A stretch of DNA of 46,898 nt from Candidatus Geohabitans tengchongensis. GTDB taxonomy: Bacteria; Sysuimicrobiota; Sysuimicrobiia; Sysuimicrobiales; Humicultoraceae. Both the position numbers and the translations under genes were made by a program. The stretch is from contig JAVKIH010000001.1 of assembly GCA_031459625.1 (NCBI GenBank), positions 195,175 to 242,072 of the forward strand, written 5' to 3'. The notes under the pieces are model-generated. The model was not told where the DNA came from, did not search any database, and saw only the letters and a program-made list of their open reading frames with translations. Below, piece by piece: positions 21,996-35,316 of this stretch (position 1 is the stretch's first letter; every line of letters begins with the position of its first letter).

Positions 21996-22042
21996 GGGCT
22001 GCGCCGCAGCGGGCATCCGCACGTCGCCGGACGCTGCCTCGC

Positions 22043-22072
22043 TGGACGCTGGGACGCGACGGAGGCTATAAT
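22043..22072 (+). promoter_or_regulatory. Promoter for tRNA-Glu
   Basis: TGGACG (22043-22048), 18 bp spacer, TATAAT (22067-22072). Confidence 0.6.
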
Positions 22073-22092
22073 CAACCGTCCTCCGACGGGAC

Positions 22093-22168
22093 GGCCCCAT
22101 CGTCTAGGGGACCAGGACGCGGCCCTCTCAAGGCCGAAACGGGGGTTCGAATCCCCCTGGGGCCACCA
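22093..22168 (+). tRNA. tRNA-Glu (anticodon CTC)
   Basis: Acceptor GGCCCCA/TGGGGCC, anticodon arm CGGCC-CTCTCAA-GGCCG, T-loop GTTCGAATC, encoded CCA; 76 nt. Confidence 0.96.
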
Positions 22169-22266
22169 CGCCGGGAGCGTACGCACCGACTCGCCGAAGG
22201 CCTCCCCCGTGCAGTTCGGCCGCCGCGCGTCGCCCGCTCCGGAGCGTCCGTCCAGGGGAGTGAGCC

Positions 22267-23163
22267 ATGGCAGCGATGCCCGCCGCGTCGTCCACCCCGA
22301 GATCCGACGCCACGGCGATCCGCCGCGCCGCCTTCGTCGGCGTGGGCGTGATGGGCGAGGCGCTGATCCGCGGGCTGCTGGCGCAGCAGCGCCTCCGCCC
22401 CCAGGCCGTCGTCGCCTCCCACCCCCGGGAGGCCCGCCGCCAGGAGCTGCGTGAGCGCTACGGCATCACCGTGGAGGCACACAACCGGGCGGCCGTCGAA
22501 GGGGCCGACCTGGCGGTGCTCTGCGTGAAGCCGCAGGTGGCCCCGCGCGTCCTGCGCGAGCTGGCCGGCGCGCTGGCGCCGCACGCCTTCCTCCTCTCCA
22601 TCGCCGCCGGCGTCCCCCTGGAGGTGCTGGCCGCGGCCAGCGGCCAGCGCGCCGTGGTCCGCGCCATGCCCAACACCCCCGCGCAGATCGGCGAGGGGAT
22701 GACGGTGTGGACGGCCACGCCGGAAGTCACGCCCGAGCAGCGCGCGCAGGTGCGCACGCTGCTCGGCGCGCTGGGCCAGGAGCTGGAGGTAGCCGACGAG
22801 GACTACCTGGACATGGCCACCGCCGTGAGCGGGACCGGCCCCACCTACGTCTTCCTCCTCATGGAGGCGCTCGTGGACGCGGCCGTCCACCTGGGGTTCT
22901 CCCGCACCGACGCCCGCCGCCTGGTGGTGCAGACGCTGCGCGGCGCGGCGCTGTTCGCCGAGCAGTCCCACCTCCACCCCGCCGAGCTGCGCAACATGGT
23001 CACCTCCCCCGGGGGGACCAGCGCGGCCGCCCTCTACCAGCTGGAGAAGGGCGGGCTGCGCACCGTCATCTCCAAGGCGATCTGGGCCGCCTACCAGCGG
23101 TCGGCGGCGATGGGCCGGGCGGCGCGCGCGGCGCTCACCGGGGAATCCGCCGATCCGGCGTGA
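22267..23163 (+). CDS. proC: Pyrroline-5-carboxylate reductase
   Basis: GVGVMG, VKPQ, SIAAG, RAMPNTP, TAVSGTGP, VTSPGGTS. Confidence 0.95.
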   Translation: MAAMPAASSTPRSDATAIRRAAFVGVGVMGEALIRGLLAQQRLRPQAVVASHPREARRQELRERYGITVEAHNRAAVEGADLAVLCVKPQVAPRVLRELAGALAPHAFLLSIAAGVPLEVLAAASGQRAVVRAMPNTPAQIGEGMTVWTATPEVTPEQRAQVRTLLGALGQELEVADEDYLDMATAVSGTGPTYVFLLMEALVDAAVHLGFSRTDARRLVVQTLRGAALFAEQSHLHPAELRNMVTSPGGTSAAALYQLEKGGLRTVISKAIWAAYQRSAAMGRAARAALTGESADPA

Positions 23164-23253
23164 CGGCGCGCATGCCCCTGCGGGCGCCGGCGGCTGCGGC
23201 GGGAGCGCGCTGGCGGGGCGCGCGCGGTGACGTATAATGCTGTGAGGAGTCAG

Positions 23254-24075
23254 ATGGTGCGAGCGCCCGGGACCGCCCAGCGGACCGCCGCCGCCTTCGC
23301 CGCGGCCGTGGTCCTCCTCGTCGTCCTGGCCGTTGCCGCCACGGTGGCGGCGCGCACGCGCTGGTGGTTCCCGCCGCTGGCGTCCCTGCACGGCCGGGCG
23401 GTGGACACCCTCTTCGCCGTGACCTTCGGCATCATCGCGGTGGCCTTCGTCCTCGTCCACGCCCTGCTCGCGCTCTTCGTCTGGCGCTACCGGGAACACC
23501 CCGAGCGCCGCGCCGCCCACTGGCACGACCACCGCGCCCTGGAGCTGACCTACACCCTCGTGCCGGCCGTCGTGCTGGTGAGCCTGACCCTGGCGGCGGC
23601 GCGCCTGTGGGCGGGGATCCACAGCCCGCCGCCTGCTGGGGCGCTGGCGGTGGAGGTGCGGGCGGAGCAGTTCGGCTGGCTGGCCCGCTACCCCGGCCCG
23701 GACGGCGTCTTCGGGCGGGTGGACCCGGCGCAGTATGACCGCCGGCGCAACCCCATGGCGCTGGACCGGAGCGACCCGGCCGGCCGCGACGACATCGTCA
23801 CCACCGAGCTCCACCTGGTGGTCGGCCGGCCGGCGGCGGTGCGGCTGCGCTCGAAGGACGTCATCCACTCGTTCTTCCTGGCGGAGCTGCGGGTGAAGCA
23901 GGACGCCGTCCCGGGGGTCACGGTGGTGAAGTGGTTCGTACCCACGCGGGTAGGGACGTTCGAGATCGCCTGCGCCGAGCTGTGCGGTGTGGGCCACTAC
24001 GCCATGCGCGGCCGTCTGGTCGTGCAGTCGCAGGCCGCCTTCGACGCCTGGCTGGCGGCGCAGGGGCGCCGCTAG
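23254..24075 (+). CDS. coxB: Cytochrome c oxidase subunit II
   Basis: DVIHSF and CAELCGVGHYAM CuA ligands; TATAAT at 23233-23238 and SD GAGGAG before ATG 23254. Confidence 0.92.
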   Translation: MVRAPGTAQRTAAAFAAAVVLLVVLAVAATVAARTRWWFPPLASLHGRAVDTLFAVTFGIIAVAFVLVHALLALFVWRYREHPERRAAHWHDHRALELTYTLVPAVVLVSLTLAAARLWAGIHSPPPAGALAVEVRAEQFGWLARYPGPDGVFGRVDPAQYDRRRNPMALDRSDPAGRDDIVTTELHLVVGRPAAVRLRSKDVIHSFFLAELRVKQDAVPGVTVVKWFVPTRVGTFEIACAELCGVGHYAMRGRLVVQSQAAFDAWLAAQGRR

Positions 24076-24097
24076 GGGGCGGCCAGCGGAGGGAGCG

Positions 24098-25903
24098 ATG
24101 AGCCACGCCACCCACCCCGAGGTCCACGTCGAGCCCGAGCTGAGCTTCTGGCGCAAGTACATCTTCAGCCAGGACCACAAGGTCATCGGCATCCAGTACG
24201 CCCTCACCTCGCTGGTGATGGCCGTGATCGGCGGGATCCTGGCCATGGTGATCCGCCTGCAGCTGGGCTGGCCGGGCACGCGCTGGCCGCTGCTGGGCAG
24301 CCTCTTCCCGGGCGGGGCGCCGGGCGGGCTGGTCTCGCCGGCCTTCTACCTGGCCAGCGTGACCATGCACGGGACCATCATGATCTTCTTCGTCCTGACC
24401 ACCCTGCTCACCGGCGGCTTCGGGAACTTCCTCATCCCGCTCATGATCGGCGCGCGGGACATGGCCTTCCCCTTCCTCAACATGCTCTCCTACTGGCTCT
24501 ACCCGCCGGCGCTGCTCGTCCTGCTGGCCTCCTTCTTCGTGGAGGGCGGCGCGGCCGGGGGCGGGTGGACCGCCTACCCGCCGCTGTCGGCCCTGCCCCA
24601 GGCCGCCCCCGGCTCGGGGCTGGGGCAGACGTTGTGGCTCATCAGCCTGGCCATCCTCATCGTGGCCTTCCTCTTCGGCTCGCTGAACTACATCACCACG
24701 GTGCTGCAGCTGCGCACGCGGGGCATGTCCATGCTGCGGCTGCCCCTCACGGTGTGGGCGCTCTTCGTCACCGCGCTGCTCTCGCTGTTCGCCTTCCCCG
24801 TGCTGCTGGCCGCCTCCATCATGCTCCTCTTCGACCGCCTGGGGGGGACGAGCTTCTTCGTGCCCGCCGGCGTGCTCATCGGCTCCCAGGCCGTCGACCA
24901 CCGCGGCGGCAACCCGCTGCTCTGGCAGCACCTCTTCTGGTTCCTGGGGCACCCGGAGGTCTACGTGCTCATCCTGCCCCCCATGGGGATGGTCTCCGAC
25001 ATCCTGGCCAACAACGCCCGCAAGCCCATCTTCGGTTACCGTTTCATGGTGGCCTCCATCGTGGCCATCGGCTTCCTCTCCTTCCTGGTCTGGGGGCACC
25101 ACATGTACGTCAGCGGCATGCACCCGCTGCTCGGCACCGCCTTCATGACGACGACGCTGATCATCGCGGTGCCCTCGGCCATCAAGACCTTCAACTGGCT
25201 GGCCACCCTCTACCGTGGGCGCATCCGCTTCACCACACCCATGCTCTTCGCGCTGGGCTTCCTCTCGCTCTTCGTCACCGGGGGGCTCACCGGCATCGTT
25301 CTGGGCCAGCCGCCGGTGGACATCTATATGCACGACACCTTCTTCGTCGTCGCCCACTTCCACTTCGTCATGGGGCTGGCCGCCATCTTCGCCGCCTTCG
25401 CCGGGACCTACTACTGGTTCCCCAAGATGTTCGGGCGGATGATGGACGAGCGGCTGGGCAAGTGGCACTTCTGGCTCTCCTTCGTGGGCGCGTACGCCAC
25501 CTTCTTCCCCATGCACTACCTGGGCTTCCGGGGGATGATGCGGCGGATCTATACCTACACGCTCTACGAGCGCCTGGCCGGGCTGCAGCCCATCAACGCC
25601 TTCATCTCGGTGGCGGCCTTCGTCCTCTTCGCCGCGCAGTTCATCTTCCTGTACAACTTCTTCGCCTCCGCCGTCCGCGGCCGGCGGGCCGAGGTCAACC
25701 CCTGGGGGGGCACCACGCTGGAGTGGCAGGCCCCCTCCCCGCCCCCGCACGGGAACTGGGGCCCGACGCTGCCCACCGTCTACCGCTGGGCCTACGACTA
25801 CTCCCCGCCCGGGGCCAGGGAGGACTTCCTCCCTCAGACGGCCCCGCCGGTCGAGGCGGCCGTGCCCGGCGACGGGCAGCGGCGGGGGAGGGAGGGCCAC
25901 TGA
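24098..25903 (+). CDS. coxA: Cytochrome c oxidase subunit I (type A1)
   Basis: DHKVIG, TMHG, GWTAYPPLS, FWFLGHPEVY, VWGHHM, HDTFFVVAHFH, MMRRI. Confidence 0.96.
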   Translation: MSHATHPEVHVEPELSFWRKYIFSQDHKVIGIQYALTSLVMAVIGGILAMVIRLQLGWPGTRWPLLGSLFPGGAPGGLVSPAFYLASVTMHGTIMIFFVLTTLLTGGFGNFLIPLMIGARDMAFPFLNMLSYWLYPPALLVLLASFFVEGGAAGGGWTAYPPLSALPQAAPGSGLGQTLWLISLAILIVAFLFGSLNYITTVLQLRTRGMSMLRLPLTVWALFVTALLSLFAFPVLLAASIMLLFDRLGGTSFFVPAGVLIGSQAVDHRGGNPLLWQHLFWFLGHPEVYVLILPPMGMVSDILANNARKPIFGYRFMVASIVAIGFLSFLVWGHHMYVSGMHPLLGTAFMTTTLIIAVPSAIKTFNWLATLYRGRIRFTTPMLFALGFLSLFVTGGLTGIVLGQPPVDIYMHDTFFVVAHFHFVMGLAAIFAAFAGTYYWFPKMFGRMMDERLGKWHFWLSFVGAYATFFPMHYLGFRGMMRRIYTYTLYERLAGLQPINAFISVAAFVLFAAQFIFLYNFFASAVRGRRAEVNPWGGTTLEWQAPSPPPHGNWGPTLPTVYRWAYDYSPPGAREDFLPQTAPPVEAAVPGDGQRRGREGH

Positions 25904-26547
25904 CCTCCCCTCGCACGCTCGAGCGCGCCCCGCGGCCGGTCCCGGCCCCGCCGGGGGGCGGGGCTTGGCCGCCCTCGGGGGACGGCTTCCGGGGCGGTGG
26001 CGGTGGGGAGAGCGCCGTCCCCCGCGCCCAGACGGCGCGGGTGGGGCTGGGGGTCTTCCTGGTGGCGGTGACGATGCTCTTCGTTGCCTTCACCGCCTCC
26101 TACCTGGCGCGGCGCACCGCTGCCGACTGGGCGCCCGTCCCGCTGCCGCAGCTGTTCTGGGCGAACACGGCGGTGCTGCTGGCCAGCAGTGCGGCCCTGG
26201 AGTGGGGGCGGCGGCGCGGGCGACGGGGCGACCCGGCCGCGTTGCGCGCCGGGGTGCGCACGGCCGCCGCGCTGGGGGCGCTCTTCGTCCTGGGACAGGT
26301 GGGGGCGTGGCGCCAGCTGGCCGCCCAGGGCGTCTTCATGGCCACGAGCCCCCACAGCGCCTTCGTCTACCTGCTGAGCGGGGTGCACGCCGTCCACCTG
26401 ACGGGCGGGGTGGGCGCCCTGGCCTACGCGCTGCGGCAGGTGGACCGCCACCCCGACCCGCTGGGCGCGGTGGAGGCGCCGGCGCTGTACTGGCACTTCG
26501 TGGACGCGCTCTGGCTCTACGTCTTCGCCGTCCTCGCCTTCCTCTGA
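25900..26547 (+). CDS. Cytochrome c oxidase subunit III-like, first copy; start uncertain (possible CTG)
   Basis: TMLFVAFTASY, NTAVLLASS, LSGVHAVHL, YWHFVDALW. Confidence 0.85.
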   Translation: MTSPRTLERAPRPVPAPPGGGAWPPSGDGFRGGGGGESAVPRAQTARVGLGVFLVAVTMLFVAFTASYLARRTAADWAPVPLPQLFWANTAVLLASSAALEWGRRRGRRGDPAALRAGVRTAAALGALFVLGQVGAWRQLAAQGVFMATSPHSAFVYLLSGVHAVHLTGGVGALAYALRQVDRHPDPLGAVEAPALYWHFVDALWLYVFAVLAFL

Positions 26548-26615
26548 CCGGGCGCGCGGAGGGCGTCGAGCGCCCGAGGACGGGATCTCCGAGGACGGGA
26601 CACCCGGAGGAGCTG

Positions 26616-27290
26616 ATGGAGCAGGTGGGGCAGGTCGTGCAGCGCACGGAGGAGCAGGTGCTCGAGCCCTCCCCCTGGGGCGGTGGGCAGTCCCCCTTCG
26701 CCGTCTCCTGGCCCAAGCTGATGATGTGGCTCTTCCTGCTCTCCGACGCGCTGACCTTCGCGGCCCTGCTCTCCGGCTACATGGTGGCCCGTCTCACCGC
26801 GGGCGTCTGGCCGCACCAGGCGGCGATCTTCAACGTCACCTTCGTCGTGGGGCCGATGACCTTCATCCTCATCTGCAGCAGCGCCACCATGGCCGTGGCC
26901 GTGGGGGCCGCCCGGCGGGGGGAGCGGCGCCTGGTGGTCCGCTACCTGCTCCTCACCGTGCTCGGCGGGCTGGCCTTCCTGGGGATGCAGGCGTACGAGT
27001 GGACCCACTTCATCCGCGAGGGGGGGCGGCTCACCGGGTGGGCTGGGCACGTCCCCGAGGGGGTGCTGCCGCCGGGGGCGGCGATGCCGGCGATGTTCCC
27101 GGCCACTTTCTTCGTCACCACCGGGTTCCACGGCGCCCACGTCACCAGCGGGGTGATCTACCTGTTGGTCAAGGCCGTGCAGGCCGCCCGCGGGCGGGCC
27201 AGCGCCGAGTCCGTCGAGATCGCCGGCCTGTACTGGCACTTCGTCGACCTGGTCTGGGTCTTCATCTTCACCATGCTCTACCTGATCTGA
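26616..27290 (+). CDS. Cytochrome c oxidase subunit III, second copy
   Basis: KLMMWLFLLSD, MQAYEW, TGFHGAHV, GLYWHFVDLVW; SD GGAGGAG. Confidence 0.92.
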   Translation: MEQVGQVVQRTEEQVLEPSPWGGGQSPFAVSWPKLMMWLFLLSDALTFAALLSGYMVARLTAGVWPHQAAIFNVTFVVGPMTFILICSSATMAVAVGAARRGERRLVVRYLLLTVLGGLAFLGMQAYEWTHFIREGGRLTGWAGHVPEGVLPPGAAMPAMFPATFFVTTGFHGAHVTSGVIYLLVKAVQAARGRASAESVEIAGLYWHFVDLVWVFIFTMLYLI

Positions 27291-27315
27291 GGCTGAGCTG
27301 AGGCGGGAGGGAGGC

Positions 27316-27630
27316 GTGGCCCCACACGGCGGATCCGCACACACAGACGGCCCCTGGTACCGCACCTACGTCGTGGTGTGGTTCTGGCTGCTGGTCATCA
27401 CCGTCCTGGAAGTCGGCGCGGTGGCGGTGACGTTGCCGCGGGCGCTGCTGGTGACGCTGCTGGTGGTGCTCTCGCTGATGAAGGCGGCGCTGATCGTGGC
27501 CTACTTCATGCACCTGCGCTACGAGCGGCTCAACTTCATCTTCGCCGTGCTGGCCCCGGCGATCCTCATCGTGGTCCTGGTGGCGGGCGTCGCCCCGGAC
27601 GGGGTCAACGCCGTGCTGTTGCGGCGCTAA
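27316..27630 (+). CDS. Cytochrome c oxidase subunit IV family
   Basis: Three TM segments, KAALIVAYFMHLRYE; last gene of the cox operon. Confidence 0.88.
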   Translation: MAPHGGSAHTDGPWYRTYVVVWFWLLVITVLEVGAVAVTLPRALLVTLLVVLSLMKAALIVAYFMHLRYERLNFIFAVLAPAILIVVLVAGVAPDGVNAVLLRR

Positions 27631-27675
27631 CGGCCGTGCCGGGCGCGCGCGAGACGCATCCCGGTGACGCGCGAA

Positions 27676-27696
27676 CCGCCCCCGGGGAGGGGGCGG
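27676..27696. terminator. Hairpin between the convergent cox operon and LuxR gene
   Basis: CCGCCCCC-GGGGA-GGGGGCGG. Confidence 0.4.
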
Positions 27697-27711
27697 CGGC
27701 GCTCCTTGTCC

Positions 27712-28092
27712 CTACAGCAACCCCTCGTCGCTCAGGCGGGCCACCATGGCCGCCCGACTGCTCACGTGCAGGCGGCTGTAGATGCGGCGCAGGTGCGTCA
27801 GCACCGTCCACGGGCTGATCCCCAGCACCTGGCCGATGGCCTTCGTCCCCAGCCCCCGGGCCACCAGCCGCGCCACCTGCAGCTCCCGCGGCGTCAGGGT
27901 GACCGTCCCCGAGCGCGGGCGCAGGCGGGAGAGGCGGTAGGTGGCCCCCTCGACGTCCACCTCCGCCAGGACCTCGTGCCACCGCCCTTCGGGGGCGCTG
28001 ATCCGCCGGACCGGCGGGACGCCGACGCTCATCCGGGCCAGCTCCCGCAGCAGGCTCTCCCGGGGGGTCTCGCGCTCCGGCAGCGTCTTCAT
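27712..28092 (-). CDS. LuxR C-terminal HTH transcriptional regulator (126 aa, no receiver domain)
   Basis: ATG 28092 overlaps the upstream TGA (ATGA); LTPRELQVARLVARGLGTKAIGQVLGISPWTVLTHLRRIYSRLHVSSR. Confidence 0.88.
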   Translation of the reverse strand: MKTLPERETPRESLLRELARMSVGVPPVRRISAPEGRWHEVLAEVDVEGATYRLSRLRPRSGTVTLTPRELQVARLVARGLGTKAIGQVLGISPWTVLTHLRRIYSRLHVSSRAAMVARLSDEGLL

Positions 28093-29384
28093 GCTCCCGC
28101 GGCCGCCGCGGCCCGCTGGGCGTCGAACGCCCCGGCGAAAGCGCGGGCGGCCTCTCCCTCCTTTCCTTCCTCGAGGTAGGCGAATCCCAGGTCGCGGAGC
28201 GCCTCGCTGAGCTCGCGCGACATGCCGAGCCGGCGGAACGCCTCCGCCGCCGCGTGGAAGTGGCCACGGGCGGCGGCGGCGTCGCCGCGCAGGCGCGCCA
28301 CCGCACCCAGCGCCGCCCGCGCCCGCGCCGCCTCGGCCGGGTCGCCCACCCGTTCGGCCAGGCGGAGCGCCTCGCGGGCGTGCCCGTCCGCTTCGTCGGT
28401 CCGTCCGAGAGCCGCCGCGGCCCGCGCCAGCTCGGTGAGCGTCTGGGCGCGTCCGGCGTCGTCGGCCGCCTGCTCGGCGATGAGGAGGCTCTGACGGAGA
28501 AGCGGCTCGGCCTCGGCGGGGGCGCCGCGGTCGAGGTGGACGATGGCCAGGCTGCGGCGGGCGATCCCCAGCAGCTGGAGGTTCTCCTGGAGCTGGAAGC
28601 ACTCCGCCGCCCGGGTGAGGTGGCGGGTCGCTTCCGTCCAGGCGCGGTGCTGCAGGCACACCATGCCCGTGTGGTAGTGGAGGAGCCCGAGGGTCTCCGG
28701 GTCGGCGGCCGCCCGCAGGGCGGCCTCGGCCGCCCGGAAGCACTCCTCGGCCTGGAGCGGCAGGCCCAGGTTGAGGTAGACGCGGCCGAGGTTCCCCCAG
28801 ACCCGCCCGGTGAGGGCCCGGTCCTCGGAGGGGGCCGACCGCAGGTGGTCGAGGGCGCGCTGCAGGGCGCGTCGCGCCGCAGGGAAGTCCCGTCGGCGCA
28901 GCTCCATGATGCCCCGGGCGTTGGCCGCCTGGGCGGCCAGCAGCGCGTCGCCCAGGGCCGCCGCCCCCTCTTCGGCGGCGGCGACGTGGGGCTCGGCCAG
29001 GTCGAAGTGGTGCAGGCCCGTGAGGGCCTGGGCCAGGCCCAGGTGGGCGCGGGTCTGCAACCGGAGGTCGGCCAGGCGGTCTGCCCCCCGGAGGGCGGCC
29101 TGGTACTCCTCCACCGCCCGGGTGAACTCGTGGCGCACCAGCAGTGCGTCGCCGTGAGAGAGGTGGGCTTCGAGGAGGAGGGGGTGCTCCTCCTCATCGG
29201 CCAGCAGGGCACTGAGCGGTTCCTGGAGGCGCTCCGCCAGGCGGCGTAGCGTGGCCAGGGAGGGCCGGACCCGATCGTGCTCCACCATGCTGATGAAGCT
29301 CTCCGAGAGGTCCTCTCCGGCCAGCGCCCGCTGGGTCAGGCCGCGGGCTTTGCGAAGCGCACGCAGTCGGGCCCCGAGCGTCAC
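28089..29384 (-). CDS. XRE-HTH plus tetratricopeptide-repeat regulator (RRNPP-like architecture)
   Basis: LGARLRALRKARGLTQRALAGEDLSESFISMVEHDRVRPSLATL followed by many TPR-like helical repeats (e.g. GRVWGNLGRVYLNLG, AQTLTELARA). Confidence 0.88.
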   Translation of the reverse strand: MTLGARLRALRKARGLTQRALAGEDLSESFISMVEHDRVRPSLATLRRLAERLQEPLSALLADEEEHPLLLEAHLSHGDALLVRHEFTRAVEEYQAALRGADRLADLRLQTRAHLGLAQALTGLHHFDLAEPHVAAAEEGAAALGDALLAAQAANARGIMELRRRDFPAARRALQRALDHLRSAPSEDRALTGRVWGNLGRVYLNLGLPLQAEECFRAAEAALRAAADPETLGLLHYHTGMVCLQHRAWTEATRHLTRAAECFQLQENLQLLGIARRSLAIVHLDRGAPAEAEPLLRQSLLIAEQAADDAGRAQTLTELARAAAALGRTDEADGHAREALRLAERVGDPAEAARARAALGAVARLRGDAAAARGHFHAAAEAFRRLGMSRELSEALRDLGFAYLEEGKEGEAARAFAGAFDAQRAAAAAGA

Positions 29385-29533
29385 ACCGGCTCACCCCCCG
29401 TGACGGCCAGGACGGTCCCCGACCCAGAGGTCGGGATGGCCGGCCGGGCGGTCACCGCGTCGAGCCGGTCAGGGTGCCTCTGCTGCCCCGCTTCTCGGGG
29501 CCCCGGGTTGAGGAGGGGGAGGGCCCCCGGCCC

Positions 29534-29665
29534 CTACTTCCCGGATCCTCCAAAGAAGTCGGCGTCCCCCGGGCCGGCGAAGGCCGCAGGCACGCCGAGG
29601 GCAGTGGGAATGGCCAGGGCCAGCTGGAGGGCCACGAACACTCCCAGGATGAACCTGCGCATCAT
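29534..29665 (-). CDS. Small secreted pro-peptide (43 aa), putative signalling peptide
   Basis: MMRRFILGVFVALQLALAIPTALGVPAAFA-GPGDADFFGGSGK*; strong SD GGGAGG; basic N-region, hydrophobic core, AFA signal peptidase motif. Shorter than any ORF in the track. Confidence 0.75.
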   Translation of the reverse strand: MMRRFILGVFVALQLALAIPTALGVPAAFAGPGDADFFGGSGK

Positions 29666-29850
29666 CCCTTCCTCCCTTCGTGCGCTGCCACTCTACCTAT
29701 CGACCAGACCCGGGGTTTTTAGACCCCCTCCCGGCGGAACCGGCGAAGGACGTTGGCAGGTGTGGAGGGTGCGGGACGGGCGACAGGCCTGCCGGCTCTA
29801 GGGTCGGGGTTCGACGTGGTGACTGAAGTTCCTTCCCCGGTCGGCGGAAA

Positions 29851-29869
29851 ACTTCACTAAAAGTGAAGT
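29851..29869. promoter_or_regulatory. Perfect 8-3-8 palindrome, candidate operator
   Basis: ACTTCACT-AAA-AGTGAAGT in an AT-rich divergent intergenic region. Confidence 0.6.
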
Positions 29870-29980
29870 CACCCGAAAGGGCATTGAACCAGGAGTCCAC
29901 CGGGTGATCGGGCACGGCGTCGAGAATGGATGGAGAAACCGCCGCGGGGAGCCACCCCGGCAGGGAGAGGGGGGAAGACG

Positions 29981-30271
29981 GTGCCGACCTACATCATGCT
30001 GAGCACCCTCACGGAGGGGGGAGCGGAGACCCTGCGCAGCCGGCCCGAGCGCGTGCGCGAGGTGAACCGGGAGATCGAGGGGATGGGGGTGCGGGTGCTG
30101 CAGCAGTACGCGGTGCTGGGGCCCTACGACTTCGTGAACGTCGTCGAGGCGCCGGACAACGACACGGTGGCGCGCGTCTCGGTGGAGCTGGCCGCGCGGG
30201 GCAGCGTGCGGATCATGACGCTGCCGGCCATCCCCATGGACGACTTCATCGCCCGGCTGCGCCGCAGCTAG
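29981..30271 (+). CDS. GYD domain protein
   Basis: PTYIMLSTLTEGG...YAVLGPYDFVNVVEAPD...RIMTLPA; GTG 29981 with a purine-rich SD. Confidence 0.85.
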   Translation: MPTYIMLSTLTEGGAETLRSRPERVREVNREIEGMGVRVLQQYAVLGPYDFVNVVEAPDNDTVARVSVELAARGSVRIMTLPAIPMDDFIARLRRS

Positions 30272-30409
30272 CTGCGGCCGCGCCTGCCGGCGCGCCCCGC
30301 GCGCCAGCGAGCGGGTGCGCCGCTCGTGCGGCGGGCGCGCCATCCAGCGTCACCTGCAGCAGGCGCCACCTCCTGGGCGCCCTGGGGCGCCGGGTATAAT
30401 GGAGGTGCC

Positions 30410-30622
30410 ATGGCGGACATCGGCAAGCTGCTGGTGGACCTGCAGCGGACGCAGGGTGCCGGCGGGTCCATCGCCCTGAGCGTGAGCCTGAAGGAGGCGA
30501 CCCCGCTCTTCGCCATCTTGCTCGTCCGGGGGAATCAGGTCGTCGACATCCTGGCGACCGGGCGCACGCCCGAGGATGCCTGCCGCGCCGCCGCCGGGGA
30601 CGTGGCGGCCGCGGTCCGCTAG
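30410..30622 (+). CDS. Small hypothetical protein (70 aa)
   Basis: GGAGGT before ATG 30410; GC3-biased codons; MADIGKLLVDLQ... Confidence 0.65.
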   Translation: MADIGKLLVDLQRTQGAGGSIALSVSLKEATPLFAILLVRGNQVVDILATGRTPEDACRAAAGDVAAAVR

Positions 30623-30627
30623 GCGCC

Positions 30628-30900
30628 GTGCCTCCCACGGTCGACGAGGCGCGGCGTCGCCTCCGCGCCACGCTCGCGGTTGCCGCCCCCGACCTGACCC
30701 TCGACGCCGCCGCGGTGCGCTGGATCCCCGGTCCCTACCCGGGGTTCGAGTACGGCCTCCGGCTGGGGCAGGCCAACGCCCTGCTCTTCCTCCCGCTGGA
30801 GGATCTTGACGGGGACGGGTGGGAGACGCGGCTGGCCGAGCGCCTGCGCCAGGCGCGCGCCTACCTCGAGGCGTTCCCGCTGGCCCGCGTCCGCCGCTGA
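30628..30900 (+). CDS. Hypothetical protein (90 aa)
   Basis: Fills the operon gap (5 and 3 nt spacings) with protein-like composition. Confidence 0.6.
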   Translation: MPPTVDEARRRLRATLAVAAPDLTLDAAAVRWIPGPYPGFEYGLRLGQANALLFLPLEDLDGDGWETRLAERLRQARAYLEAFPLARVRR

Positions 30901-30903
30901 GCC

Positions 30904-31554
30904 GTGGAGGTCGAGCAGCTCCCCGTCGGGCCCCTGCTCGCCAACTGCTACCTGGTGGCCGACCCGCACACCGCCCGCGCCCTGGTGGTCGACCCCGGCG
31001 ACGAGGCGGAGCGGATCCTGCACCGGATGCGCCGGCGCGGGTGGACCTGTGCGGCCATCGTCGCCACCCACGCGCACTTCGACCACGTGGGGGGCGTGCG
31101 CGACCTGCGAGCGGCTACCGACGCCCCCTTCCTCATCCTCGACGCCGAGCGCGAGACGCTCGCCACCGCCGCCGTGCGGGCCGAGCTCTTCGGCGTCCCC
31201 ATCTCGCCGCCGCCTCCGCCCGACCGGTGGCTGCGGGACGGCGACGTGGTGGCGGTGGACGGGCTGCGCTTCCAGGTCGTACACGCCCCCGGGCACAGCC
31301 CGGGCCACCTCCTCCTGGTCACCGATGGGGCGGCCTTCGTCGGCGACGTGGTCTTCGCCGGCAGCGTGGGCCGTACCGACCTGCCCGGCGGGGACACGCC
31401 CACCCTGCTCGACACCCTCGCCCGCACCATCCTGCCGCTCCCCGACGCCACGGTCCTCTACCCCGGCCACGGCCCGCCCACGACGGTCGGCCGCGAGCGC
31501 CGGGAGAACCCCTTCCTGCGCAGCCTGCGGCCGCAGCCGCCGGGCCCGCGCTGA
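30904..31554 (+). CDS. MBL-fold metallo-hydrolase (glyoxalase II-like)
   Basis: THAHFDHVGG, PGHSPG, GDVVFAGSVGRTD, PGHG, ENPFL. Confidence 0.92.
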   Translation: MEVEQLPVGPLLANCYLVADPHTARALVVDPGDEAERILHRMRRRGWTCAAIVATHAHFDHVGGVRDLRAATDAPFLILDAERETLATAAVRAELFGVPISPPPPPDRWLRDGDVVAVDGLRFQVVHAPGHSPGHLLLVTDGAAFVGDVVFAGSVGRTDLPGGDTPTLLDTLARTILPLPDATVLYPGHGPPTTVGRERRENPFLRSLRPQPPGPR

Positions 31555-31619
31555 GCGGGCCGCCGTCCGCCGTCCGCACCGCGGCGGTATAATGGAGCGG
31601 TCTCGCTCCCGACGTCCGC

Positions 31620-33479
31620 ATGCGGCACCGACGGCTCCGCGCCTACCTCCTGCGTCACCGCCGCGCCTACCTGCGCGGCTTCGCGCTGAGCGTGGCCAGC
31701 ATCGCCCTGGCCACGGCCAACCCCTGGGTGCTGCGCTACGCCGTCGACGGCATCCGCCAGGGGATCGGGGCGGGGCCGCTGGCGGCGCTGGCCGGCCTCT
31801 ACGTGCTGGTGGCGGCCGCCCGCGGGGTCATCACCTACTGCTGGCGCAGCAGTATCATCGGCGCCTCGCGCCGGATCGAGTACGAGCTGCGCAACGACTA
31901 CTTCCGCCACCTGCAGCGGCTCCACCTGGGCTACTTCCAGCACACCCGCATCGGCGACCTGATGGCGCGCGCGGTGAACGACCTGAACGCGGCCCACCGC
32001 ATGACCGGGATCGGGGTGATGCACGGCTTCAACACCGTCACCCACTTCCTCGTGGCCGGCGCCATGATGGTCCTGCTCGACTGGCGCCTGGCGCTGCTGG
32101 TGGGGCTCATCCTGCCGCTGGTGACCGTGACCTTCATCGCCCTGGGGCGGCAGATCCACCAGCGGTTCGAGCAGGTGCAGCAGCAGTTCGGCACCATCTC
32201 CGCCCGGGCACAGGAGAACTTCTCCGGCGTGCGGGTGGTGCGGGCCTTCGCCCAGGAGCCGTTCGAGATCGCCGCCTTCGCCGAGCTGAACCGCGCCTTC
32301 GTCCACCAGAACGTGCGGCTGGCCCGCGTCTCCGGGGCGCTGTGGCCGGCCATGACGCTCATCCTGGGGATCGCCACGGTGGGGGTGGTGTGGCAGGGCG
32401 GCCTGGCCGTCATCGCCGGGCGGATCACCCTGGGGACGCTGGTGCAGTTCCTGGCCTACCTGGGCCAGCTCTCCTGGCCGATGATCGCGCTCGGCTGGGT
32501 GATCAACATCGTCCAGCAGGGGAGCGCCTCGATGGGGCGGCTGGACGAGGTGCTGAGCGTCCGGCCGGCCATCGCCGACCCGCCCGACCCCGCCCCGGTG
32601 CGCACGCTGCGCGGGGAGGTGGAGTTCCGCGGTGTGAGCTTCGCCTACCCGGTCCCGCCCGAGGCCGGGACGGACGGCGCCGGGGGAGGGGGTTCGGGGC
32701 GGCTGGTGCTGCGCGACATCACGCTGCACATCCCCGCCGGTCGGACGGTGGCCATCGTCGGCCCCACCGGGAGCGGCAAGTCCACCCTGGTCAACCTCAT
32801 CCCCCGCCTCTTCGACCCCACGGCGGGGGAGGTGCGGGTGGACGGGATCGACGTGCGCCGGCTGCCGCTCGCCGTCCTGCGCCGGCACATCGGGATGGTC
32901 CCGCAGGAGCCGTTCCTCTTCTCCGACACCCTGGAGGAGAACCTGGCTTTCGGGCTGGACGTCGCGGCGCCCGACCAGGGTGGTGACGGCGCCGCCACCG
33001 ACGGGGCCTGGACCGCCGCCCCGGCGCGGCCGGCCGAGCCGGCCAACGGCCAGCGGGTGCTGCGCGCCGCCGAGGTGGCCCAGCTGGCCAAGGACGTACG
33101 CGACTTCCCGCAGGGGTACGCCACCCTGGTAGGCGAGCGCGGGGTGACCCTCTCCGGCGGGCAGAAGCAGCGGGCCACGCTGGCCCGGGCGATCGCCCGC
33201 GACCCGGCCATCCTGATCCTGGACGACGCGCTGAGCAGCGTGGACACCCAGACCGAGGAGGAGATCCTCCGGGAGCTGCGCGCGGTGATGGCCAGCCGCA
33301 CCTGCCTGATCATCTCCCACCGGGTCTCCACGGTGCGGCACGCCGACGAGATCGTCGTGCTGGACGAGGGGCGCATCGTCGAGCGCGGCACGCACGAGGC
33401 CCTGCTGGCGCGGGGCGGCGTCTACGCCGACCTCTACCGGCGGCAGCTCCTCAGCGAGGCGCTGGAGGCGGAGGGGTGA
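31620..33479 (+). CDS. ABC exporter fused permease/ATPase (MdlA-like)
   Basis: TM domain; GPTGSGKS, LSGGQKQR, ILILDDALS (degenerate Walker B). Confidence 0.92.
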   Translation: MRHRRLRAYLLRHRRAYLRGFALSVASIALATANPWVLRYAVDGIRQGIGAGPLAALAGLYVLVAAARGVITYCWRSSIIGASRRIEYELRNDYFRHLQRLHLGYFQHTRIGDLMARAVNDLNAAHRMTGIGVMHGFNTVTHFLVAGAMMVLLDWRLALLVGLILPLVTVTFIALGRQIHQRFEQVQQQFGTISARAQENFSGVRVVRAFAQEPFEIAAFAELNRAFVHQNVRLARVSGALWPAMTLILGIATVGVVWQGGLAVIAGRITLGTLVQFLAYLGQLSWPMIALGWVINIVQQGSASMGRLDEVLSVRPAIADPPDPAPVRTLRGEVEFRGVSFAYPVPPEAGTDGAGGGGSGRLVLRDITLHIPAGRTVAIVGPTGSGKSTLVNLIPRLFDPTAGEVRVDGIDVRRLPLAVLRRHIGMVPQEPFLFSDTLEENLAFGLDVAAPDQGGDGAATDGAWTAAPARPAEPANGQRVLRAAEVAQLAKDVRDFPQGYATLVGERGVTLSGGQKQRATLARAIARDPAILILDDALSSVDTQTEEEILRELRAVMASRTCLIISHRVSTVRHADEIVVLDEGRIVERGTHEALLARGGVYADLYRRQLLSEALEAEG

Positions 33480-33480
33480 G

Positions 33481-35316
33481 GTGAGCACCGCCTTCCACGA
33501 GGACGAGCTCCTCGGCCGCGCCTACGACAGCCGGCTCATGCGGCGGCTGCTGGCCTACCTGCGCCCCTACCGCGGGCTGGTGGCGCTCTCGGTGGTCCTC
33601 CTCCTGCTCCACTCCGCGGCCCTGCTGGCGGGCCCCGCCCTGCTGCGCGTGGCCATCGACCGGCACATCGCCCCCCGGCGCCCGGAGGGGCTGGAGTGGG
33701 TGGTGCTGGCCTACCTGGGGACGCTCGGGGCGGCCTTCGCCGTCCGCTACCTGCAGAACATCCTGATGCAGCTCGTCGGCCAGCGGGCCATGTACGACCT
33801 GCGCATGGCCATCTTCACCCACCTGCAGCGCCTGGCCGTGGGCTTCTATGTGCGCACCCCGGTGGGGCGCCTGCTCACCCGCATCACCAACGACGTGGAC
33901 GCGCTCAACGAGCTGATCACCCAGGGTGTGGTGGCCGTCTTCGGGGACCTGGTGACGGTAGTGGGCATCGTGGCGGTCATGCTGGTGATGGACTGGCGCC
34001 TGGCGCTGGTCACCTTCACCGTGCTCCCCCTCATCCTCTACGTCACCGCCGTCTTCCGGGCCCGCGCCCGTGACACCTACCGGGCCGTGCGCACCCGCCT
34101 GGCCCGCCTCAACGCCTACCTGAACGAGAACCTCATGGGGATGGCCATCGTCCAGCTCTTCAACCGGGAGGCGCGCGCCTTCGCCCGCTTCCAGGGTCTC
34201 AACCGGGACCTGCTGGCCGCGCACCTCCAGGGCCTGCGCTACGTCGCTCTCTTCCAGCCCGCCGTGGGCGTCATCCGGGCGCTGGCGGTGGCCCTGGTCC
34301 TCTGGGTGGGCGGGGCGGCGCTGGGGACGACGGTGACCATCGGGCTGCTCGTCGCCTTCATCCAGTACGCCGAGCGCTTCTTCGAGCCGATCGAGCACCT
34401 GGCCGAGCAGTACAACATCTTGCAGGCCGCCATGGCCTCCTCGGAGCGCATCTTCCGCCTCCTCGACGAGCCGGTGGAGGTGGCCGACCCGCCCGACCCG
34501 GTGCCACTCGAGCGGCTGCGCGGCGAGGTGGAGTTCCGCGGGGTCTGGTTCGCCTACCCGCCGCAGGAGGGCGCCCCGGACGGCGCCGCGGAGTGGGTGC
34601 TGCGCGACCTCTCCTTCCACATCCGCCCGGGGGAGAGCGTGGCCCTGGTGGGCCACACCGGCGCCGGCAAGTCCTCCATCATCAACCTGCTGATGCGCTT
34701 CTACGACCCGCAGCGCGGGACCGTGGTGGTGGACGGGGTGGACGTGCGCCGCTACGCGCAGCGCGACCTGCGCCGGCACATCGGGCTGGTCCTGCAGGAC
34801 GTCTTCCTCTTCTCCGGCACGGTGGCGGACAACATCCGGCTGGGCAACCGGGAGATCGACGACGCGGCGGTGCGCCGGGCGGCGGAGTTCGTGAACGCCC
34901 ACCGGTTCATCGAGCGGCTGCCCCGCGGCTACCAGACGGAAGTGAAGGAGCGGGGCGCCATCCTCTCCGTGGGCCAGAAGCAGCTCATCGCCTTCGCCCG
35001 GGCCATCGCGCACAACCCGGAGATCCTACTGGTGCTGGACGAGGCCACCAGCAGCGTGGACACCGAGACGGAAGAGCTGATCCAGGAGGCGCTGCGCCGG
35101 GTGATGCACGGGCGCACCTCCATCATCATCGCCCACCGCCTCTCGACGATCCAGCACGTCGACCGGATCCTGGTCTTGCACAAGGGGCGCCTGGTGGAGA
35201 CGGGGACGCACCGGGAGCTGCTGGCCCGCGGCGGCGTCTACAGCAAGCTGTACGAGCTGCAGTTCGCCGCGGTCGGGGCGGGGCGGCGGGGCGAGACGGG
35301 CACGGGCGCGGGATGA
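33481..35316 (+). CDS. ABC exporter fused permease/ATPase (MdlB-like partner)
   Basis: GHTGAGKS, LSVGQKQL, VLDEATS, AHRLST. Confidence 0.92.
   Translation: MSTAFHEDELLGRAYDSRLMRRLLAYLRPYRGLVALSVVLLLLHSAALLAGPALLRVAIDRHIAPRRPEGLEWVVLAYLGTLGAAFAVRYLQNILMQLVGQRAMYDLRMAIFTHLQRLAVGFYVRTPVGRLLTRITNDVDALNELITQGVVAVFGDLVTVVGIVAVMLVMDWRLALVTFTVLPLILYVTAVFRARARDTYRAVRTRLARLNAYLNENLMGMAIVQLFNREARAFARFQGLNRDLLAAHLQGLRYVALFQPAVGVIRALAVALVLWVGGAALGTTVTIGLLVAFIQYAERFFEPIEHLAEQYNILQAAMASSERIFRLLDEPVEVADPPDPVPLERLRGEVEFRGVWFAYPPQEGAPDGAAEWVLRDLSFHIRPGESVALVGHTGAGKSSIINLLMRFYDPQRGTVVVDGVDVRRYAQRDLRRHIGLVLQDVFLFSGTVADNIRLGNREIDDAAVRRAAEFVNAHRFIERLPRGYQTEVKERGAILSVGQKQLIAFARAIAHNPEILLVLDEATSSVDTETEELIQEALRRVMHGRTSIIIAHRLSTIQHVDRILVLHKGRLVETGTHRELLARGGVYSKLYELQFAAVGAGRRGETGTGAG

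Follow-up and report, generated by a model that had tools for sequence, protein, structure and literature searches.

According to passages of recent work, RRNPP signalling belongs to the Gram-positive Bacillota and to their mobile elements (PMC9765709, PMC10075063, bioRxiv 10.1101/2023.09.19.558401). The locus analyzed here raises the question of whether a peptide signalling circuit of this type also exists outside that phylum. It is located on a 46,898-nt stretch of DNA (the window) from Candidatus Geohabitans tengchongensis (assembly GCA_031459625.1, contig JAVKIH010000001.1, positions 195,175 to 242,072), and comprises a small open reading frame (ORF) of 43 aa, a gene for a 431-aa protein with a helix-turn-helix (HTH) domain and tetratricopeptide repeats (TPRs), referred to below as the receptor, and a gene for a 126-aa LuxR-type protein. 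Our analysis indicates that these genes probably constitute an RRNPP-type peptide signalling circuit, with a SigH-dependent operon, export, re-import and binding of the peptide, positive feedback and a LuxR output. ORF calling gives the minus-strand order palindrome (29869-29851), 43-aa ORF, 431-aa ORF and 126-aa ORF, so that the three co-oriented genes and the perfect upstream palindrome reported in a first-pass annotation of this DNA were all found where it had placed them. Its further statements, that the start of the 126-aa ORF overlaps the receptor stop in an ATGA (28092 versus 28089), and that the block lies between cox genes and a GYD gene, were confirmed as well, the latter by Pfam matches on the flanks. 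The gap between the peptide and receptor genes is 149 nt at the window locus and 15-280 nt among homologues.

The first step is to establish whether the small ORF is a gene, and whether it belongs with the receptor. It might be a chance frame next to an ordinary stand-alone HTH-TPR regulator; the ORF matches neither Pfam nor NCBIfam. We therefore turn to its conservation in 109 near-full-length receptor loci (fragments excluded), the receptor being matched in 52 of 61 related genomes. A small ORF was scored when it was co-oriented, 25-110 aa long, ended at most 400 nt upstream, and had a Shine-Dalgarno sequence, a K/R start and a hydrophobic stretch. Of the 99 receptor loci with 450 nt or more of upstream sequence, 63 had such an ORF, versus 16 of 916 control genes from the host genome of the window, one of these 16 being the window receptor itself. 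Within the ortholog clade (36 rows, the duplicate L031 removed) the score rises to 35/36, and the sole miss has only 207 nt before the contig end. Outside this clade, 30/65 receptor loci with the same minimum of upstream sequence scored, plus seven when the Shine-Dalgarno requirement was relaxed. An independent but redundant set of metagenome loci with sufficient DNA upstream gave 36/39 by the strict rules; the three misses carry an ORF with a G-run ribosome site, as judged by eye. The first-pass annotation had staked its proposal on an adjacent, co-varying small secreted ORF at homologous loci, and such an ORF thus accompanies all but one of the 36 orthologs and all 39 metagenome receptors. 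Furthermore, differences among nine close homologues are biased towards the third codon position (201, 155 and 399 at positions 1, 2 and 3), and repeats within the propeptides differ synonymously (see below). Together with the pairing (35/36 versus 16/916), this conservation refutes the chance-frame explanation, to which we assign a vanishingly small probability.

What kind of product does the ORF encode? The 43-mer has a K/R-containing n-region, a hydrophobic h-region (mean hydropathy 2.5 over 10 residues), a c-region ending in AFA and then an acidic, Gly-rich tail. This type of leader is conserved in the homologues, which are 38-88 aa long, and wherever a peptide gene was detected in a Sysuimicrobiota locus, it lies upstream. 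We regard the 43-aa ORF as a coding sequence with the traits of a propeptide. In 22 of 68 propeptides, stretches of six or more residues recur exactly, in two to five copies, and in 21 of these 22 the copies differ synonymously. The repeated cores start right after an Ala, which at the window locus corresponds to the position directly after the AFA of the leader, and on this basis we infer that the mature peptide is GPGDADFFGGSGK. Internal duplication of the core is described in passages of PMC9765709 as a trait of AimR, NprR, Rap and PlcR propeptides, and PMC11343458 also describes duplicated pheromones as a trait of RRNPPA systems. The peptide core tracks the receptor clade and not the genome: the best-8-mer score averages 26.6 for 543 cross-genome pairs whose receptors share at least 40% TPR identity, versus 16.0 for 1269 more distant pairs and 16.6 for 18 pairs of paralogues from the same genome. 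Consistent with this, all three full-length receptors of the host genome have their own, different upstream peptide. The two further cassettes of this genome (contig C20, 30483-32229, L108; contig C8, 12237-13824, L109) encode duplicated 8-residue cores; the C20 peptide has two Cys between the copies, and its DNA is apparently less GC-rich than the genome.

The second partner is the receptor. Pfam assigns HTH_3 to residues 7-58 and TPR_12 (E 1.6e-23) to the repeat region; there are also weak TPR_MalT and AfsR matches. The AlphaFold2 model (predicted local distance difference test, pLDDT, 94) shows the HTH followed by 18 helices that form nine TPRs. In structure searches, the best matches were LGN (Z 29.8, root-mean-square deviation (rmsd) 4.8, 317 residues aligned), Rap of phi105 (Z 29.7, rmsd 3.7, 341 aligned) and RapI (Z 29.4), followed by NprR (Z 25.0, rmsd 5.8, 341 aligned, 11% identity), AimR (Z 23.1) and PlcR (Z 20.9, aligned just to receptor residues 1-282), with overall identities of 11-21%. 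Residues of the predicted peptide groove are strongly conserved: Q119, R163, R201, R277, E318, R321, E351 and R397 are invariant in 34/34 ortholog rows and N198 is kept in 33/34, and these polar residues of the inner helices mostly differ in other receptor clades. Residue 394 is Arg in 23/23 receptors paired with a peptide that lacks a basic tail; in 10/10 receptors, from two branches, whose peptide ends in Lys or Arg, it is Glu, Asp or Ala. This pattern is a post-hoc lead out of 28 positions viewed. Co-folding of receptor residues 66-431 with propeptide residues 14-43 gave a score of 0.32 (runs 0.32, 0.02 and 0.55) versus 0.02 for the best of three controls, with at least 21% shared contacts and a partner pLDDT of at least 27. 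Of 157 solved pairs, 116 reach the mark set for co-folding, as do 2 of 215 mismatched ones; scores of 0.60 or below, however, hold just 18 of the 157 solved pairs and both mismatches, so that the co-fold support is weak. Thus, modelling as proposed in the first-pass annotation gave a nine-TPR, NprR-like architecture, but also a fold that is not specific to RRNPP proteins and a weak peptide co-fold. We also observed that locus L136 (P0016) has the same propeptide and promoter, and that the 199 N-terminal residues of its receptor (92% identical) run into a HATPase_c domain, which may reflect a fusion or a misassembly.

The weak co-fold and the existence of orphan receptors leave room for a different division of labor, in which the peptide is an output, such as a secreted effector or a precursor resembling those of ribosomally synthesized and post-translationally modified peptides (RiPPs), and the HTH-TPR protein senses something else in the manner of MalT or AfsR. 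Some RiPP classes typically have multi-core precursors, and the TPR_MalT and AfsR matches point in the same direction. On the other hand, the leader is of the Sec type and not of the RiPP type, the peptide cores co-vary with groove residues of the receptor, and the receptor lacks the ATPase domain of MalT or AfsR. Moreover, no conserved peptide-modifying enzyme, protease or exporter was found beside the cassette among the 84 neighbours scanned. We consider it quite improbable that the peptide is an output, and continue with the peptide as the ligand of the receptor.

How would such a cassette be controlled? Upstream of the peptide gene, 33 of 35 ortholog loci and 22 of 33 paralogue loci carry the pattern AGGA-N17/18-GAA, versus means of 1.8 and 1.1 in shuffled sequence, and other spacings are not favoured. 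Passages of PMC12456013 give the SigH consensus as AGGA and GAAT, 17-18 nt apart; the base after GAA is T in just 12 of the 55 SigH-type motifs (from 68 regions), and C at the window locus. Since both the pattern and a SigH gene are present, the peptide-gene promoter is predicted to be of the SigH type. A scan for sigma-70 promoters gave no match. An extracytoplasmic function (ECF) sigma factor reading, with GGAACTT as the first element, was rejected, since just 10 nt separate it from GTCGAA, fewer than the 16 nt that we take to be usual, and the paralogues retain just AGGA and GAA. About ten SigH-like intergenic sites were seen in the host genome.

Just upstream of this promoter lies the palindrome, with perfect 8-bp arms around a 3-nt centre. 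The full palindrome has no second match at up to three mismatches in the window (0.01 expected) or in the 2.76-Mb genome. Its core is present, at up to two mismatches, in 28 of 32 ortholog promoters versus 0.6 in shuffles, mostly 17-18 nt upstream of AGGA. The box was found in 15/16 promoters of the subclade without a LuxR gene, versus 2/21 paralogue promoters. Because the box follows the receptor clade in this way, the receptor HTH is its likely reader, and the clade-specific box suggests autoregulation. The LuxR protein was rejected as the reader, the box being present in 15/16 loci from genomes without a LuxR match. A wider regulon was likewise rejected: among the 23 genome sites with at most one mismatch, that of the window is the only one that is perfect or lies beside a SigH-type motif. 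In eight paralogue promoters (L094, L095, L087, L106, L080, L067, L069, L078), which lack the window box, a conserved AGCAAT-type motif occupies the SigH spacer; such motifs are candidate operators of other receptor clades.

The position of the box also bears on the sign of the regulation. At most loci, 17-18 nt separate the full palindrome from the downstream -35 element, and the palindrome is near -60, a usual position for activators that touch RNA polymerase. Within the promoter spacer, 28 of 33 loci have a third half-site of the box behind AGGA, and in family f2 (four loci) the box is just 8-9 nt from the -35 element. These latter features would suit a circuit in which the peptide relieves a repressor bound to the box and the spacer half-site, as in PrgX, or turns an activator off, as in AimR. 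With the palindrome near -60 in most loci, we regard repression or peptide-induced release as rather unlikely, and lean modestly towards a receptor that activates the SigH promoter.

Building on the gene anatomy, the conserved pairing, the promoter motif, the box and the co-variation of peptide and receptor that we observed, the biochemical steps of the circuit would be as follows. SigH-RNA polymerase would transcribe the peptide, receptor and LuxR genes as one transcript from 29833-29809. The 43-mer would be exported by Sec and cut by signal peptidase behind AFA, releasing GPGDADFFGGSGK, perhaps trimmed to about nine residues. The peptide would then re-enter the cell via one of 21 systems with family-5 (Opp/Dpp-type) binding proteins, and dock in the TPR groove, where the invariant Arg residues suit its Asp residues, as the weak co-fold may also suggest. 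The conservation of the box suggests that CTTCA-N7-TGAAG, at about -60, is recognized by the receptor HTH, which would activate the SigH promoter and thereby close a positive feedback loop; the half-site in the spacer could damp this loop. The genome's sole perfect box sits at this operon, and the LuxR protein would therefore be the output that passes the signal to other genes.

With respect to this output, the first-pass annotation had listed a second transcription factor downstream of the receptor. It is present at the window locus but turned out to be an optional third part: the LuxR gene lies behind the receptor in 19 of 36 ortholog rows (one across a contig break), and a 17-row subclade does not have it. 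Among 61 genomes, the gene was found in 15, always directly behind a receptor match and nowhere else. The model of the LuxR protein has a small N-terminal part consisting of a helix and three strands. Foldseek aligns the HTH alone, and the N-terminal part has no known sensor match; in Pfam, neither a receiver nor an Autoind_bind match was found. In the 17-row subclade, the genes that follow the receptor in the same orientation include those for patatin, amidase and trypsin-like enzymes. Five loci of that subclade (L012, L013, L016, L023, L025) have a second TPR gene convergent behind the receptor, an HTH-TPR gene in L012, which is possibly an orphan partner of the receptor.

Would the signal leave the cell? 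The host genome (2.76 Mb, 73% GC) has as its best named relative a CSP1-3 genome (56% identity), which NCBI files under Candidatus Sysuimicrobiota. An Omp85 gene in the host genome, and LpxC in 30 of 31 genomes, make it likely that the host is a diderm with a lipopolysaccharide (LPS) outer membrane. In the order, 56 of 61 genomes have a SigH (TIGR02859) match above the family cut-off, and Spo0A was matched in 0 of 21 genomes, so that we are likely dealing with a SigH-bearing host that shows no sign of sporulation. The 21 SBP_bac_5 matches (family-5, Opp/Dpp-type peptide-binding proteins) in the host genome show that importers exist, and nothing more.

Little above about 600 Da gets through general porins. 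A peptide of about 1 kDa might thus stay in the periplasm and be re-imported by its producer, in which case the loop would act as a timer or as a gauge of export, proteolysis or Opp load. The LpxC and Omp85 genes and the lack of a dedicated exporter conserved beside the cassette fit such self-sensing, as does the sparse deep soil that, according to passages of PMC11962464, many relatives inhabit. On the other hand, the cores diverge between clades and paralogues like private codes, and tandem copies increase the dose per transcript, both of which fit a shared signal better, although they are compatible with self-sensing too. Self-sensing appears to us doubtful, and we tend, by a small degree, to favour a signal that travels from cell to cell.

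Several observations weigh against our interpretation as a whole. The RRNPP fold fits but cannot diagnose the family, because LGN, Rap of phi105 and RapI tie, and eukaryotic LGN, besides tying with Rap by structure, heads the Foldseek list. At the sequence level, the RRNPP matches are only to the PlcR HTH (E 0.0077) and a generic TPR-level profile match to RapLS20. Position 238 is Asn in 32/34 orthologues and His in the window receptor. The pairing counts do not represent independent events, as traits are shared by descent. No neighbouring propeptide was detected at 28 of the 65 non-ortholog receptor loci, which are orphan-like, and the five best Bacillota relatives have no candidate peptide. 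The box consensus was derived from the window itself. In addition, the outer membrane stands between the periplasm and the medium. Finally, the coverage of 22000-33500 by an RNA run (X1, contigs only) is even, with one 7995-nt contig; as this flat cover could stem from DNA, these expression data are unusable and were left aside.

The coordinates of the cassette and its surroundings are collected in Table 1.

Table 1. Features of the cassette, its promoter region and flanks (window positions), and the SigH gene of the host genome.
Feature	Position	Strand	Remarks
Palindromic box	29851..29869	.	Core CTTCA-N7-TGAAG; predicted receptor operator; centre at about -60 of the predicted start
SigH-type promoter (predicted)	29809..29833	-	AGGA-N17-GAAC; third box half-site (29829-29823) in spacer
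Second motif	29698..29722	-	CTAAA-N13-GYCGATA; sigma-28-like
Shine-Dalgarno region of propeptide gene	29666..29678	-	Strong; similar motifs precede homologous ORFs
Propeptide gene, 43 aa	29534..29665	-	ORF, kept in homologues
Sec leader (predicted)	29665-29576	-	Residues 1-30, ending in AFA; judged by pattern
Mature peptide (predicted), GPGDADFFGGSGK	29575-29537	-	Residues 31-43
Receptor, 431 aa	28089..29384	-	XRE-type HTH and nine TPRs; Arg/Asn/Glu-lined groove
LuxR/GerE-type HTH protein, 126 aa	27712..28092	-	Predicted relay regulator; Pfam GerE, residues 65-117
Hairpin	27676-27700		GC-rich; between convergent coxIV and LuxR genes; without U run; z -1.5
Cytochrome oxidase subunit IV (flank)	27316-27630		Pfam
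GYD gene (flank)	29930-30271		Pfam
Bacillota-type SigH gene	contig C43 95643-96233 of host genome		Above family cut-off

The cox operon is a convergent neighbour without a box of its own, and therefore nothing points to it as a target of the circuit. Beyond the cassette, the neighbours vary from locus to locus, and include genes for DUF420, GYD, cold-shock, nucleotidyltransferase, patatin, amidase and trypsin-like proteins, and a second, convergent HTH-TPR gene. The second motif of the window promoter region recurs in eight loci of the 9-row subclade to which the window locus belongs, where 32-37 nt separate it from the start of the peptide gene; the sigma-28 consensus presumably has a spacer two bases longer. 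In the host genome no FliA/WhiG match lies above the cut-off, and the one below it (contig C1, 130036-130575) is a candidate reader of this motif. The hairpins behind the LuxR gene (z -1.5) and between the peptide and receptor genes (z -0.5) do not exceed shuffled sequences, and an Rfam scan gave no match. With respect to a mobile origin, the cassette was unmatched in viral contig, plasmid and phage collections, and its GC content resembles that of the flanks. Elsewhere in the window, two overlapping short ORFs (30395-30900; 75 and 90 aa), both Pfam-negative, lie upstream of a metallo-beta-lactamase-fold gene.

Where do these receptors come from? A FastTree phylogeny (122 rows) groups 103 Sysuimicrobiota receptors in a single clade (support 98). 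The 17 Bacillota relatives that were sampled, with 24-41% identity, fall outside it, and the branches are long. The Bacillota rows came from 401 genomes, two rows were omitted, and none of the rows is a validated RRNPP protein, so that the tree is at most a tentative guide to the origin of the receptor. Of the same 401 Bacillota genomes, 24 were matched at 1e-10, and 4 of the 26 loci have a candidate peptide, three divergent and one convergent. Three distant HTH-TPR relatives (L216, from Bacillota genome G300, L219 and L223) have secreted peptides encoded divergently, the one from a 76%-GC genome with four to five core copies. Locus L036, from the Clostridiaceae, encodes a 411-aa HTH protein followed, 204 nt downstream, by a secreted-type ORF of 52 aa, which is the classical Bacillota layout. 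Proteins resembling the receptor were also seen in Actinomycetota, Chloroflexota and Dormiibacterota (Atlas). A profile search of 1.84 billion proteins was dominated by long TPR proteins, and 23 HTH-only metagenome matches were set aside as a separate family without the cassette.

According to passages of PMC9765709, RRNPPA genes were confined to Firmicutes in a survey of 13,513 complete genomes, and in the literature, with subscription journals thinly covered and supplementary tables aside, we found no RRNPP system described outside Bacillota. The word "quorum" is absent from the passages of the two CSP1-3 papers (PMC11604079, PMC11962464), the former of which reports that this phylum makes up as much as 22.6% of certain soil communities. 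The first-pass annotation had noted the palindrome; new here are the predicted SigH-type promoter and the specificity of the box for this receptor clade. More tentatively, one may picture an LPS-bearing, non-sporulating phylum with several private, SigH-driven, self-activating and peptide-first RRNPP-type languages per cell, whose unmodified peptides cross the outer membrane and whose receptors are an old sister lineage of those of Bacillota. If true, the host genome would hold three private peptide languages, and with a conserved, chromosomal and multi-copy system in a likely diderm phylum, cytoplasmic peptide sensing would extend to cells with an outer membrane, which raises the issue of quorum sensing versus self-sensing. 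An old sister lineage would also provide an outgroup to root the RRNPP receptor family, a task for which passages of the FoldTree paper (bioRxiv 10.1101/2023.09.19.558401) call for remote homologues; the non-degenerate nine-TPR receptors described here are of that kind. The locus offers a predicted ligand, receptor, operator and promoter, and is therefore testable without culture of the host; thermophilic, orthogonal peptide-receptor pairs are possible switches for synthetic biology.

Finally, we compare the locus with known systems. Passages of PMC10075063 give a five-part RRNPP signature, consisting of a propeptide of 10-100 aa, a Sec-type signal, a receptor of 250-500 aa, TPRs and direct adjacency, and the window locus has all five. 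The first-pass annotation had called the peptide-upstream layout unusual; the peptide gene is indeed upstream, but this is less unusual than supposed, as RRNPPA pheromone genes usually adjoin the receptor immediately upstream or downstream (passages of PMC9765709) and papRa lies directly upstream of plcRa (passages of PMC4147580). The locus differs from LuxI/LuxR acyl-homoserine-lactone systems in that the 126-aa protein has only the GerE HTH and no autoinducer-binding domain. LGN/Pins and the TPR domains of MalT and AfsR share the TPR superhelix with the receptor and are its top sequence and Foldseek matches, but they lack the HTH-plus-propeptide cassette, and the ATPase domain of MalT and AfsR is missing from the window receptor; their match mirrors canonical TPR motifs.

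Among the RRNPP systems, Rap-Phr of Bacillus and its phages (for example Rap of phi105 and phi3T, and RapI) provides the best structural match, and shares SigH-driven peptide genes and tandem pheromones with the locus. However, Rap has no HTH and targets response regulators, phr lies downstream (passages of PMC4147580), and identity is 11-13%. PlcR-PapR and PlcRa-PapRa of the Bacillus cereus group resemble the locus in the XRE-type HTH (a weak sequence match), the palindromic box and, as passages of PMC4147580 describe for papRa, the upstream peptide gene; autoregulation and Opp re-import, predicted for the window locus, would be further likenesses. PlcR differs in its five TPRs, SigA-type promoters and 45-gene regulon, whereas the window receptor has nine TPRs and one perfect box in the genome. 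NprR-NprX, also from the Bacillus cereus group, shares the HTH with nine TPRs (non-degenerate in RRNPPA clan B, to which NprR belongs, in passages of bioRxiv 10.1101/2023.09.19.558401), a 43-aa Sec-type propeptide, a SigH peptide promoter (SigH promoters drive most phr genes and nprX) and a binding region at the -35 box (both in passages of PMC4147580), and repeated cores in long propeptides (passages of PMC9765709). NprR is absent from the receptor's 27 phmmer hits in PDB. Furthermore, nprX is downstream and co-transcribed and nprR-nprX is not autoregulated (passages of PMC4147580), whereas the window peptide gene comes first, behind a receptor-clade box; a LuxR relay follows, and the host is likely an LPS diderm, in whose relatives SigH was matched and Spo0A was not. 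Taken together, the locus is likely an RRNPP-type variant outside Bacillota that is a member of neither the NprR nor the PlcR family.

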